Source: a virus (taxonomy: Duplodnaviria; Heunggongvirae; Uroviricota; Caudoviricetes). From it: a stretch of 8,806 bases of DNA. The stretch is taken from IMG/VR virus record IMGVR_UViG_2609459856_000004. One strand, 5' to 3'. Positions within the stretch are counted from its first letter, which is position 1. Every line of letters begins with the position of its first letter. Both the position numbers and the translations under genes were made by a program. A model generated the notes under the pieces. That model did not search any database. It saw only the letters and a list, made by a program, of their open reading frames with translations, and was not told the DNA's origin. Of this stretch, positions 1 to 8,806 are shown piece after piece.

Positions 1-2950
<2,950 letters not shown>

Positions 2951-5026: not shown

Positions 5027-8000
5027 ATGGGTAAAGGAAGCAGTAAGGGGCATACCCCGCGCGAAGCGAAGGACAACCTGAAGTCCACGCAGTTGCTGAG
5101 TGTGATCGATGCCATCAGCGAAGGGCCGGTTGAAGGTCCGGTGGATGGATTAAAAAGCGTGCTGCTGAACAGTACGCCGGTGCTGGACACTGAGGGGAAT
5201 ACCAACATCTCCGGTGTCACGGTGGTGTTCCGTGCCGGTGAGCAGGAGCAGACACCGCCGGAGGGGTTTGAATCCTCCGGCTCCGAGACGGTGCTGGGTA
5301 CGGAAGTGAAATATGACACGCCGATCACCCGCACCATTACGTCTGCAAACATCGACCGTCTGCGCTTTACCTTCGGTGTACAGGCACTGGTGGAAACCAC
5401 CTCAAAGGGGGACAGGAATCCGTCGGAAGTCCGTCTGCTGGTTCAGATACAACGTAACGGTGGCTGGGTGACGGAAAAAGACATCACCATTAAGGGCAAA
5501 ACCACCTCGCAGTATCTGGCCTCGGTGGTGGTGGGTAGCCTGCCGCCGCGCCCGTTTAATATCCGGATGCGCAGGATGACGCCGGACAGCACCACAGACC
5601 AGCTGCAGAACAAAACGCTCTGGTCGTCATACACCGAAATCATCGATGTGAAACAGTGCTACCCGAACACGGCACTGGTCGGCGTGCAGGTGGACTCGGA
5701 GCAGTTCGGCAGCCAGCAGGTGAGCCGTAATTATCATCTTCGCGGGCGCATTCTGCAGGTGCCGTCGAACTATAACCCGCAGACGCGGCAATACAGCGGT
5801 ATCTGGGACGGAACGTTTAAGCCGGCATACAGCAACAACCCGGCCTGGTGTCTGTGGGATATGCTGACCCACCCGCGCTACGGCATGGGGAAACGTCTTT
5901 GTGCGGCGGATGTGGATAAATGGGCGCTGTATGTCATCGGCCAGTACTGCGACCAGTCAGTGCCGGACGGTTTTGGCGGCACGGAGCCGCGCATCACCTG
6001 TAATGCCTACCTGACCACGCAGCGTAAGGCGTGGGATGTGCTCAGTGATTTCTGCTCGGCGATGCGCTGTATGCCGGTATGGAACGGGCAGACGCTGACG
6101 TTCGTGCAGGACCGACCATCAGATAAGGTGTGGACCTGTAACCGCAGTAATGTGGTGATGCCGGATGATGGCGCGCCGTTCCGCTACAGCTTCAGCGCCC
6201 TGAAGGACCGCCATAATGCCGTTGAGGTGAACTGGATTGACCCGAACAACGGCTGGGAGACGGCGACAGAGCTTGTTGAAGATACGCAGGCCATTGCCCG
6301 TTACGGTCGTAATGTCACGAAGATGGATGCCTTTGGCTGTACCAGCCGGGGGCAGGCGCACCGCGCCGGGCTGTGGCTGATTAAAACGGAACTGCTGGAA
6401 ACGCAGACCGTGGACTTCAGCGTGGGTGCAGAAGGGCTTCGCCATGTACCGGGCGATGTCATTGAAATCTGCGATGATGACTATGCCGGTATCAGCACCG
6501 GCGGGCGCGTGCTGGCGGGAAACAGCCAGACCCGGACGCTGACGCTCGACCGTGAAATCACGCTGCCATCCTCCGGTACCACGCTGATAAGCCTGGTTGA
6601 CGGAAGTGGCAATCCGGTCAGCGTGGAGGTTCAGTCCGTCACCGACGGCGTGAAGGTAAAAGTGAGCCGTGTTCCTGACGGTGTTGCTGAATACAGCGTA
6701 TGGGGGCTGAAGCTGCCGACGCTGCGTCAGCGACTGTTCCGCTGTGTGAGTATCCGTGAGAACGACGACGGCACGTATGCCATCACTGCCGTGCAGCATG
6801 TACCGGAGAAAGAAGCCATCGTGGATAACGGGGCGCACTTTGACGGTGACCAGAGCGGCACGGTGAATGGTGTCACGCCGCCAGCGGTGCAGCACCTGAC
6901 TGCCGAAGTCACTGCAGACAGCGGGGAGTATCAGGTACTGGCCCGCTGGGACACGCCGAAGGTGGTGAAGGGCGTGAGCTTCCTGCTTCGCCTGACCGTG
7001 GCAGCGGACGACGGCAGTGAGCGGCTGGTCAGCACGGCCAGGACGACGGAAACCACATACCGCTTCAGGCAACTGGCGCTGGGGCGTTACACGCTGACGG
7101 TCCGGGCGGTAAATGCGTGGGGACAGCAGGGCGATCCGGCATCGGTATCGTTCCGGATTGCCGCACCGGCAGCGCCGTCGCGGATTGAGCTGACGCCGGG
7201 CTATTTTCAGATAACTGCCACGCCGCATCTTGCGGTTTATGATCCGACGGTACAGTTTGAGTTCTGGTTCTCGGAAACGCGGATTACCGATATCAGGCAG
7301 GTTGAAACCACAGCCCGCTATCTTGGCACGGCGCTGTACTGGATAGCCGCCAGTATCAATATCAAACCGGGCCATGATTATTATTTTTACATCCGCAGTG
7401 TGAACACCGTTGGCAAATCGGCATTTGTGGAGGCTGTTGGCCAGCCGAGTGATGATGCATCCGGCTATCTGGATTTTTTCAAAGGCGAGATAGGGAAAAG
7501 CCATCTGGCTCAGGAGCTGTGGACGCAGATTGATAACGGTCAGCTTGCGCCTGACCTGGCTGAAATCAGGACGTCCATTACGGATGTCAGCAATGAAATC
7601 ACGCAGACCGTCAATAAGAAACTGGAAGACCAGAGTGCGGCAATTCAGCAGATACAGAAGGTTCAGGTTGATACAAATAATAACCTGAACAGCATGTGGG
7701 CTGTGAAGCTGCAGCAGATGCAGGACGGACGCCTTTATATCGCGGGTATTGGTGCCGGTATTGAGAACACCCCTGACGGCATGCAGAGTCAGGTGCTGCT
7801 GGCGGCGGACAGGATTGCGATGGTTAATCCTGCGAATGGCAACACAAAGCCGATGTTTGTTGGTCAGGGCGATCAGATATTCATGAACGAAGTGTTCCTG
7901 AAATATCTGACGGCTCCCACCATTACCAGCGGCGGTAATCCTCCGGCATTTTCCCTGACACCGGACGGGCGGCTGACGGCGAAAAATGCCGATATCAGCG

Positions 8001-8506
8001 GTAACGTGAATGCGAACTCCGGGACGCTCAACAACGTCACGATTAACGAGAACTGCCGGGTTCTGGGAAAACTGTCCGCGAACCAGATTGAAGGCGATCT
8101 CGTTAAAACAGTGGGCAAAGCTTTCCCCCGGGACTCCCGTGCACCGGAACGGTGGCCATCAGGGACCATTACCGTCAGGGTTTATGACGATCAGCCGTTT
8201 GACCGGCAGATTGTTATTCCGGCGGTGGCATTCAGCGGCGCTAAACATGAGAGAGAGCATACTGATATTTACTCCTCATGCCGTCTGATAGTGCGGAAAA
8301 ACGGTGCTGAAATTTATAACCGTACCGCGCTGGATAATACGCTGATTTACAGTGGCGTTATTGATATGCCTGCCGGTCACGGTCACATGACGCTGGAGTT
8401 TTCGGTGTCAGCATGGCTGGTAAATGACTGGTATCCCACAGCAAGTATCAGCGATTTGCTGGTTGTGGTGATGAAGAAAGCCACCGCAGGCATCAGTATC
8501 AGCTGA
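5027..8506 (+). CDS. J: Central tail fibre / host specificity protein gpJ (tail tip attachment protein)
   Basis: 1159-aa ORF beginning [34 protein letters not shown]..., matching the lambda gpJ N-terminus by recollection. GGAG Shine-Dalgarno 8 nt upstream. Fibronectin-III-like repeats in the middle (about residues 615-805). C-terminal ~150 aa would be the receptor-binding region. Confidence 0.9.
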
Positions 8507-8525
8507 ATTTTATAACCTCAATACG

Positions 8526-8549
8526 GGCGTCAGAAATGACGCCTTTTTT
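8526..8549 (+). terminator. Rho-independent terminator downstream of J
   Basis: Stem ggcgtca (8526..8532), GAAA tetraloop (8533..8536), stem tgacgcc (8537..8543), then TTTTTT (8544..8549). Lies 20 nt after the J stop. Confidence 0.7.
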
Positions 8550-8573
8550 ATTGCAGAAAAGCGAGAGGTAATT

Positions 8574-8806
8574 ATGCGTAAATTATGTGCTGTTATTCTG
8601 TCCGCAGTAGTCTGGCTGGTTGCCGCTGGTACGCCAGCGAGCGCAGCAGAGCATCAGTCCACACTAAGCGCCGGGTATCTTCAGGCCCATACTGATATGC
8701 CAGGCAGTGATGACCTGAAGGGCATTAACGTGAAATACCGTTATGAATTTACGGACACGCTGGGGCTGGTGACGTCATTCAGTTATGCCAATGCCAAAGA
8801 TGAGCA
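8574..8806 (+). CDS. lom: Lom-like outer membrane protein (Ail/Lom/PagC/Rck family), N-terminal 77 codons; continues beyond the window end
   Basis: ATG at 8574 preceded by GAGAGG (8563..8568). Translation MRKLCAVILSAVVWLVAAGTPASAAEHQSTLSAGYLQAHTDMPGSDDLKGINVKYRYEFTDTLGLVTSFSYANAKDE has a signal-peptide-like N-terminus and matches lambda Lom by recollection. Position immediately after J is as in lambda. Confidence 0.85.
   Translation, partial: MRKLCAVILSAVVWLVAAGTPASAAEHQSTLSAGYLQAHTDMPGSDDLKGINVKYRYEFTDTLGLVTSFSYANAKDE

Follow-up and report, generated by a model that had tools for sequence, protein, structure and literature searches.

A lambda-type J gene built of three recombined modules, with a receptor-binding domain that probably uses OmpC instead of LamB

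The window, which is the whole stretch of 8,806 nucleotides analysed here, holds the end of an insertion sequence followed by tail genes in the order H-M-L-K-I-J-lom. In blastn it aligns collinearly with lambda 10757-18002 (96% identity), and its gene order also matches the annotation of PhiR55_1. The features considered are as follows.

1-285, minus strand: terminal part of an IS3-family (ISEc31-like) element that borders on the truncated H, recognised by sequence identity
280-2625, plus strand: tape-measure gene H without its first 72 codons, the translation corresponding to lambda H from residue 73 onward
5027-8506, plus strand: gene J (tail tip attachment or central tail fibre protein), intact by open reading frame list and translation
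5027-7441 (aa 1-805), plus strand: module 1 of J, lambda-type hub domains and two FN3/Ig domains, from identity profiles
7442-7906 (aa 806-960), plus strand: module 2 of J, a 'long' shaft (alpha-helical shaft and upper beta-prism fibre), from the identity profile
7907-8030 (aa 961-1001), plus strand: conserved island and second recombination joint, from the identity profile
8031-8506 (aa ~1002-1159), plus strand: module 3 of J, the Ig-like receptor-binding domain (RBD) of 1A2 / VT1-Sakai type, a putative OmpC binder by sequence identity
8525-8552, plus strand: hairpin and T-run resembling an intrinsic terminator, between J and lom
8574-8806, plus strand: 5' part of lom (Ail/Lom outer-membrane protein), homologous to lambda Lom and running off the window

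At the left edge, homology to lambda begins in blastn at window nt 279. Copies of ISEc31 in thousands of E. coli records match the insertion sequence at 97-98% identity, the transposase start lies on the minus strand, and the Rfam model isrC matches positions 88-210 of the same strand with 150 bits. The exact junction between this element and H was absent from the GTDB species representatives, and in complete E. coli genomes it was not matched contiguously. At the right edge, the terminator-like hairpin was the single site found in a consensus scan where 0.4 would be expected by chance, and 434 and Ayreon have an annotated terminator in this position. The lom translation starts at nt 8574 (MRKLCAVILSAV...KGINVKYRYEFTD), and lom is annotated at the same offset in PhiR55_1.

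Gene J opens with ATG and encodes 1159 residues with zero internal stops. Lambda J (NC_001416 15505-18903) has 1132, so that the two lengths given in the preliminary description are correct. The NCBIfam model NF049904 (lambda_TipJ) aligns end to end with the protein, residues 1-1159 falling on model positions 1-1163, with a score of 2378.6 bits (cut-off 1950). Pfam detects six J domains, all above cut-off and in the expected order of hub, two FN3/Ig domains, shaft, tail-tip fibre and C-terminal Ig-like RBD (the domain nomenclature is that of Ge & Wang 2024).

aa 86-207: FNIII-A_GpJ
aa 330-495: Phage-tail_3
aa 610-714: Ig_J
aa 716-818: Ig_J_second
aa 872-1000: Phage_Tail_Tip
aa 1029-1159: Ig_GpJ_C

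Judged by its sequence, this J is a common natural lambda J allele, a mosaic of three modules of the kind routinely annotated as gpJ. Codon differences from PhiR55_1 comprise 70 synonymous and 18 nonsynonymous changes and private substitutions are not in excess, which together indicate that purifying selection has acted on the gene. Antisense or alternative-frame reading frames within J (6119-7504 and 7873-8169 on the minus strand, 8010-8288 on the plus strand) are regarded as by-products of a GC-rich coding region. An Rfam scan gave no matches inside J, and a repeat search there returned only short two-copy matches.

Module boundaries were placed with nucleotide-identity profiles against eight alleles together with mismatch maps. 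In module 1, residues 1-805 are identical to lambda J at 785 of 805 positions (97.5%, global alignment), in agreement with the earlier view that the N-terminal two-thirds are lambda-like. In bins of 120 nt, this part matches lambda, 434, 2G7b, Ayreon and ev203 at 92-100% nucleotide identity and, as far as nt ~7186, VT1-Sakai and JLK-2012 at only 61-88%. Divergence from lambda sets in at nt ~7435-7470, where the mismatch map has a dense run, and identity to lambda J over aa 801-950 falls to 23/50, 14/50 and 29/50 in successive blocks of 50 columns. The preliminary description had put this change after the FN3-like repeats, which holds, and had started it at 7480, which is ~10-45 nt downstream of the true onset. 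The 16-residue motif that it cited covers aa 817-832 (nt 7475-7522).

Module 2, the shaft, is 28-70% identical in nucleotides to lambda, 434 and 2G7b, 96-100% identical to PhiR55_1, Ayreon and ev203, and 86-97% identical to VT1-Sakai. It is here that the protein gains its length. The global alignment places a net addition of 28 residues at about aa 833-868 (nt 7523-7630), and the total difference of 27 residues from lambda J is made up of these 28 in the shaft and the loss of one in the RBD; the preliminary description had by implication placed the extra length in the receptor-binding region, which is incorrect. The segment between Ig_J_second and Phage_Tail_Tip has no Pfam coverage. A single-sequence AlphaFold2 model of aa 801-1159 reached a mean pLDDT of 40 and a pTM of 0.27, too poor for a fold search, and its helices over aa ~812-884 have a pLDDT of only 50-68. 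A test of the inserted segment for heptad periodicity gave no significant result, 342 of 2000 shuffles showing a contrast as high as the real sequence, so that no coiled coil is claimed from sequence statistics. The 28 additional residues may simply lengthen the helical shaft. The long shaft is the majority form among E. coli prophages.

The conserved island that follows restores the likeness to lambda J, with 46 of 50 residues identical over aa 951-1000 (global alignment). Its nucleotide identity is 76-100% to all alleles and 89% to lambda, and the longest lambda-identical runs in the 3' third of J (7916-7935, 7949-7968 and 8006-8030) all lie within it. The island also contains a published chimera fusion point, lambda aa 964, which corresponds to window aa 992 (nt 8000-8002).

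Base composition is of no help in locating these joints. The GC fraction of J falls from 0.59 (gene nt 1-2415) to 0.50 (shaft) and 0.515 (RBD), so the 3' third is indeed more AT-rich, as had been noted. The further suggestion that this marks a mosaic recombination joint fails. The drop has its onset near gene nt 2161 (window ~7187), which precedes the joint by ~250 nt and lies in sequence still 93% identical to lambda, and it is equally strong in lambda, 434 and all other J alleles examined. GC was thus discarded as a joint marker, since a drop common to lambda and all eight other alleles and lying upstream of the divergence point gives no evidence for a joint of this allele.

The RBD, where the global alignment gives about 42-45% identity, is of another type than that of lambda. 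Over aa 1001-1159 it is identical to lambda J at 71 of 159 positions (44.7%), with nucleotide identity of 52-61% per bin, and the C-terminal 150 residues are thus not near-identical to those of lambda J. Neither the 434 type (45.5% amino acid identity) nor the A8 type (64.5%, PDB 9wca) fits, both with loop indels. The close relatives are VT1-Sakai (98.1%, 156/159), 2G7b and JLK-2012 (98.7% each) and PhiR55_1 (99.4%). RBDs of this type also occur in many prophages of the long-tailed Stx kind and of commensal E. coli. Matches with E values of 1e-104 to 3e-126 are obtained to the solved structures of lambda gpJ with LamB (8xcj and others) and of 'A8 gpJ 713' (9wca/9wcb).

Among these relatives, the combinations of modules differ. 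VT1-Sakai (Sp15), the long-tailed Stx1a/Stx2a phages of O157:H7, JLK-2012, 2G7b and PhiR55_1 share the RBD at 98-99% protein identity and 95-100% nucleotide identity over nt 8027-8506. In PhiR55_1, nucleotide identity is 97.4% across the whole J-lom query (window 5027-8806). In contrast, VT1-Sakai and JLK-2012 are only 61-88% identical in the hub and FN3 part, the VT1-Sakai J being in addition frameshifted, and 2G7b joins the same RBD to a short lambda-type shaft. In Ayreon and ev203 the long shaft is combined with other RBDs. Shaft and RBD therefore assort independently, and because they recombine at the conserved NADISG-containing island, J length is unsuitable as a proxy for receptor type. 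Lambda gpJ itself (P03749; PDB 8iyk, 8xcj, 8xck) has the same domain architecture and gene neighbourhood and shares aa 1-805 and the island before the RBD; it differs in a shaft that is 28 residues shorter and diverged, in the RBD, and in being a LamB binder.

The receptor of this RBD type can be read from published work on gpJ 1A2, which is lambda J with the residues after aa 964 swapped for those of a natural prophage J (Brödel et al., Nature 2024, PMC11338833). The two proteins share the C-terminal ~168 residues after the NADISG motif and have the same RBD type. They differ in that 1A2 is an engineered fusion on the short lambda shaft with recoded DNA, whereas the window J occurs naturally and has the long shaft. 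The comparison was made by frameshift-tolerant alignment to the supplementary DNA as recovered by OCR from a PDF, with ~10 damaged codons in the compared stretch. Over aa 971-1159, 171 of 178 readable codons are identical in encoded residue, while lambda J on the same DNA reaches 93 of 177; over the RBD, aa 1001-1159, the count is 146 of 153. Of the seven RBD differences, three are the exact VT1-Sakai residues and four lie directly beside OCR frameshifts or beside an in-frame stop that is impossible. The three are R1076K, D1134N and S1157T (R, D and S in the window; K1076, N1134 and T1157 in 1A2).

In the 1A2 assay, MG1655 ΔlamB ΔompC cells carried ompC alleles on plasmids, and the C-terminal swap alone was sufficient to shift delivery from LamB to OmpC (PMC11338833). 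At the top MOI at least 76% of cells were GFP-positive with 20 of 23 OmpC variants, and at most 2% with variants G1, G2 and G40, the G1 values being those given for K-12 MG1655 OmpC (PMC11338833). Wild-type lambda J gave at most 3% delivery in ΔlamB cells (PMC11338833). According to the authors, 1A2 recognises EDL933 OmpC (PMC11338833; STEC reuse, bioRxiv 10.1101/2025.02.28.640725). In the source data of Extended Data Fig. 2c, the values for 1A2 on EDL933 OmpC are low and equal to those of panel b (PMC11338833); they clash with the text of that paper, its Fig. 1b and its G17/EDL933 data, and are treated here as a duplicated block. OmpC is also the target of the A8 gpJ (PDB 9wca/9wcb) and the phage 434 J, which have the same fold and position in the protein as the window RBD; A8 accepts K-12 OmpC and 1A2 does not. 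Phage phi330, which uses OmpC, was considered as a comparator and set aside as a distant J type, with a reported RBD identity of 35-40% to lambda and 434 (PMC12502783).

Taken with the module structure, these data suggest that the window J is a three-piece recombinant whose RBD type uses OmpC, not LamB, as irreversible receptor, with a probability of about 0.85. The proposal that the C-terminal region specifies a receptor other than LamB is thereby supported, the domain being close to that of 1A2, which is OmpC-dependent in ΔlamB cells. As a trimer, J makes up the cone of the tail tip and the central fibre; the Ig-like domain at its C-terminus binds the outer-membrane receptor and so triggers tail opening. 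From the experiments on the near-identical domain, this RBD type would take most natural OmpC variants and refuse that of K-12, and the exact window allele would be expected to behave like 1A2 and Sakai despite R1076K, D1134N and S1157T. The hosts shown for phages bearing this RBD are E. coli C, ECOR13, O157:H7 and O55:H7. K-12 is the host in none of 59 phage records with the window-type RBD, among the hosts shown, and this absence fits the failure of 1A2 on K-12 OmpC. The only paper found that mentions the PhiR55_1/PhiR46_1-series phages contains no receptor data for them.

What this J does at present is a separate matter. Since H is cut by the insertion sequence, the prophage copy is probably defective and its J may not now be assembled into virions. 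Even odds can be given to the reading that the intact-looking J is a passenger in a defective prophage, setting no host range now and serving only as a reservoir module for lambdoid recombination. As this reading would have it, the first 72 codons of H are missing, and the gene adjoins the IS3-family element at window nt ~279-285. The window begins inside the element, where a simple insertion (with the 5' end of H just upstream) and a deletion look alike, and H is disrupted both ways. On the other side, J has kept a reading frame without stops and the 70:18 ratio of synonymous to nonsynonymous changes. Passenger status would in any case describe the state of the prophage, not the binding target of the protein, and is compatible with an OmpC-type explanation.

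A narrower alternative accepts an OmpC-directed RBD and lets R1076, D1134 and S1157 shift the accepted variants from the 20/23 profile, for example by gaining K-12 or losing others. Alleles differ by indels in the segments to which residues 1076 and 1134 belong, probably loops that face the receptor. At position 1134, RBDs at least 98% identical have D, N or G, and A8 and 1A2 show that the OmpC-variant range differs between RBD alleles. With three residue differences, two of them in probable loops, the accepted range could differ. However, the substitutions are conservative (R/K, D/N, S/T), and RBDs the same as this one, or nearly so, are extremely common throughout the E. coli lineages; this suggests that the type is broadly functional and not a specialised variant. 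Such a shift is therefore unlikely. It is a tentative idea, and a distinctly doubtful one, that the long shaft is a functional unit of its own, acting in tip reach through O-antigen or capsule or in the mechanics of the helix-to-sheet trigger described for lambda, and/or that loop residues 1076 and 1134 tune recognition of OmpC variants.

It is highly improbable that the RBD still uses LamB or another porin (OmpF, FhuA), with the host-range reading wrong or nominal: the near-identical 1A2 domain functions in ΔlamB cells, it fails in ΔlamB ΔompC cells with a non-cognate K-12-type ompC though ompF and fhuA are not deleted, and the window RBD is far from that of lambda, even if a receptor switch is not provable from divergence alone. 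Phage 21 uses LamB though its J RBD differs from that of lambda. According to the title of one report, the receptor-binding protein of that phage evolves new receptor functions (PMC11336670).

If the RBD is an OmpC binder, then phages and prophages with this J should show a predictable dependence on OmpC rather than LamB and poor plating on K-12. The window J in itself matters little, being a common allele with an RBD type whose receptor and swappability are known; lambda particles have already been retargeted by making use of the OmpC specificity and modular exchange of this type. At nucleotide identities of 95% or more, the window-type RBD is found in about 2,300 replicon records from complete E. 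coli genomes and in 53 phage records, many long-tailed Stx phages among them. At any identity, RBD matches occur in 3,398 of the 5,426 genomes of the complete E. coli set.

By analogy with the gpJ chimera 1A2, OmpC can be assigned with good confidence as the receptor of this J protein. The allele type is known and abundant, and its function has been published and exploited already. J lies in a lambdoid tail-tip module, with M, L, K and I as its 5' neighbours. The NCBIfam model lambda_TipJ matches the protein across both ends (2378.6 bits, cut-off 1950); since this model has 1163 positions, the long form of J is the norm of the family. The Pfam domains occur in the order FNIII-A_GpJ, Phage-tail_3, Ig_J, Ig_J_second, a gap, Phage_Tail_Tip and Ig_GpJ_C, the gap (J aa 819-871) being without Pfam coverage.

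Features of the window and of J
1-~285, - strand: end of an ISEc31-like IS3-family element, adjoining H at codon 73
88-210, - strand: Rfam isrC (Hfq-binding sRNA family), 150 bits, in the 5' region of the IS element
279-2625: tape-measure gene H, without its first 72 codons
5027-8506, + strand: J ORF, ATG start, no internal stops, 1159 aa
To nt ~7441: module 1 of J, hub and FN3 part, lambda type
7442-7906: module 2, shaft, long type
7907-8030 (J aa 961-1001): conserved island between shaft and receptor-binding domain (RBD)
8031-8506: module 3, RBD
J aa 872-1000: Pfam Phage_Tail_Tip
J aa 1029-1159: Pfam Ig_GpJ_C ("C-terminal receptor binding domain")
8525-8552: terminator-like hairpin, 3' of J
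8574: start of lom, 3' of J and the hairpin

Nucleotide-identity profiles against eight alleles (lambda, 434, 2G7b, Ayreon, ev203, PhiR55_1, VT1-Sakai and JLK-2012) set the boundaries and resolve J into three modules that, on this evidence, assort independently. Module 1 is 92-100% identical to lambda, 434, 2G7b, Ayreon and ev203; up to nt ~7186, VT1-Sakai and JLK-2012 are at 61-88%. The long shaft is common to the window, PhiR55_1, Ayreon and ev203 (96-100%) and VT1-Sakai (86-97%), while lambda, 434 and 2G7b have a short type only 28-76% identical to it. The RBD is 94-100% identical to those of PhiR55_1, 2G7b, VT1-Sakai and JLK-2012, and 52-72% to those of lambda, 434, Ayreon and ev203. The J of 2G7b combines a short shaft with the window-type RBD and that of Ayreon a long shaft with a 434-like RBD, so J length and receptor specificity are separable. 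Between shaft and RBD, the island keeps 76-100% identity across alleles that otherwise diverge and appears to be a natural crossover site for RBD exchange. The fusion point of the engineered gpJ chimeras (lambda aa 964, window aa 992) falls within it. By the domain names used in Ge & Wang 2024, module 2 covers the alpha-helical shaft together with the upper beta-prism, and module 3 corresponds to the Ig-like RBD, whose loops face the receptor. Heptad statistics and a single-sequence AF2 model gave nothing informative on any role of the longer shaft.

Comparison with lambda J (1132 aa) bears out the preliminary description, which had called this J longer and its N-terminal two-thirds lambda-like: aa 1-805 are identical at 785 of 805 positions. 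Divergence begins with a dense mismatch run at nt ~7435-7470 (aa ~804-815), just 5' of the 16-residue motif (aa 817-832, nt 7475-7522) near which it had been placed. Over aa 801-950 there are just 14-29 identities per 50 columns; in the island, aa 951-1000, there are 46. The net gain of 28 aa lies entirely within aa ~833 to ~868, that is, in the shaft and not in the receptor-binding part. The C-terminal receptor region does differ as proposed: the last 159 residues have 44.7% identity to lambda and lack one aa relative to it.

The suggestion of a receptor other than LamB gains support from the near-identity of the RBD to that of the OmpC-directed 1A2. Brödel et al. (Nature 2024, PMC11338833) engineered lambda particles by keeping lambda J up to aa 964 and taking the remainder from natural prophage J sequences; A8 and 1A2 are two named chimeras of that design. 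Their supplementary DNA is machine-read text with indels, and the proteins were aligned by a frameshift-tolerant dynamic program. Of the codons that read cleanly, window aa 971-1159 match 1A2 at 171/178 (aa 1001-1159, 146/153); lambda J matches the same DNA at 93/177, and the window matches A8 at 123/172. At three of the seven differences, 1A2 has the exact residues of natural VT1-Sakai J (K1076, N1134, T1157); the VT1-Sakai RBD is identical to the window's at 156 of 159 positions, and these three loop-region substitutions may affect the range of OmpC variants accepted. The other four differences adjoin either sites of OCR repair or an in-frame stop that cannot be genuine. Among RBDs at least 98% identical, aa 1134 (nt 8426-8428) is D in the window and PhiR55_1, N in VT1-Sakai, JLK-2012 and 1A2, and G in 2G7b; it adjoins an indel-prone loop and is a possible specificity-tuning site.

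The annotation splits J into two CDSs in both VT1-Sakai and JLK-2012. At 3473 nt, the length of VT1-Sakai J is not a multiple of three, and JLK-2012 J has one in-frame stop; these are thus inactivated or mis-sequenced copies, both with the window-type RBD.

In MG1655 ΔlamB ΔompC carrying ompC alleles on a plasmid, 1A2 was assayed on 23 natural OmpC variants; at the highest MOI, 20 of them gave at least 76% GFP-positive cells, and G1, G2 and G40 at most 2% (PMC11338833). The values for G1 are those given for K-12 MG1655 OmpC, and wild-type lambda J reached at most 3% in the same ΔlamB cells (PMC11338833). According to the authors, EDL933 OmpC is recognised by 1A2 and MG1655 OmpC is not (PMC11338833); they later employed the chimera against O157 strains. 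In the PDB, structures of lambda gpJ, alone or bound to LamB, and "A8 gpJ 713" (9wca/9wcb) match the 3' region of J with E from 1e-104 to 3e-126. These matches make the lambda mechanism described by Ge & Wang 2024 most likely, in which the trimeric RBD would insert its loops into a trimeric porin; for the window J this porin would be OmpC, not LamB.

In the source data of Extended Data Fig. 2 (supplementary file 10, PMC11338833), panel C (OmpC-EDL933) repeats the numbers of panel B (OmpC-MG1655) for both 1A2 and A8. Panel C clashes with the paper's text, the Fig. 1b data and the G17/EDL933 data, and is probably a duplicated spreadsheet block.

The RBD segment (nt 8027-8506) occurs at any identity in 3,398 of 5,426 complete E. 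coli genomes, the median genome having it at two places; 2,310 records of that set have it at ≥95% identity. At ≥95% it is also found in 53 phage records, mostly long-tailed Stx2a- or Stx1a-converting phages, plus isolates with E. coli C or ECOR13 as propagation host; among the hosts listed for phage records with this RBD type, none is a K-12 strain. The best whole-gene match, PhiR55_1 (97.4% nucleotide identity), differs by 70 synonymous and 18 nonsynonymous codons. There is no excess of private substitutions in window J (7, equal to lambda).

The window starts inside the IS element, and lambda homology starts only at nt 279, H codon 73, so the listed ORF 178-2625 is an IS/H chimera. With H disrupted, the prophage copy is probably defective, which tempers a "host range" reading of J. 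Neither the 5,426 complete E. coli genomes nor the GTDB species representatives yielded a match to the exact IS-H junction. The isrC match arises because the IS3-family element carries that sequence and is no stand-alone sRNA locus.

The preliminary description had also taken an AT-rich 3' third as consistent with a recombination joint. GC content is indeed 0.59 upstream and 0.50-0.52 in shaft and RBD, but the drop was rejected as a marker of the window allele's joint. In every allele examined, lambda included, GC goes from ~0.62-0.67 to ~0.50 at J gene nt ~2161 (window ~7187), where the sequence is still 93% identical to lambda, and the step is of equal degree in all eight comparison alleles. 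It is a general property of the J gene, uninformative on that joint, and lies in the second FN3/Ig domain, 5' of any allele-specific joint.
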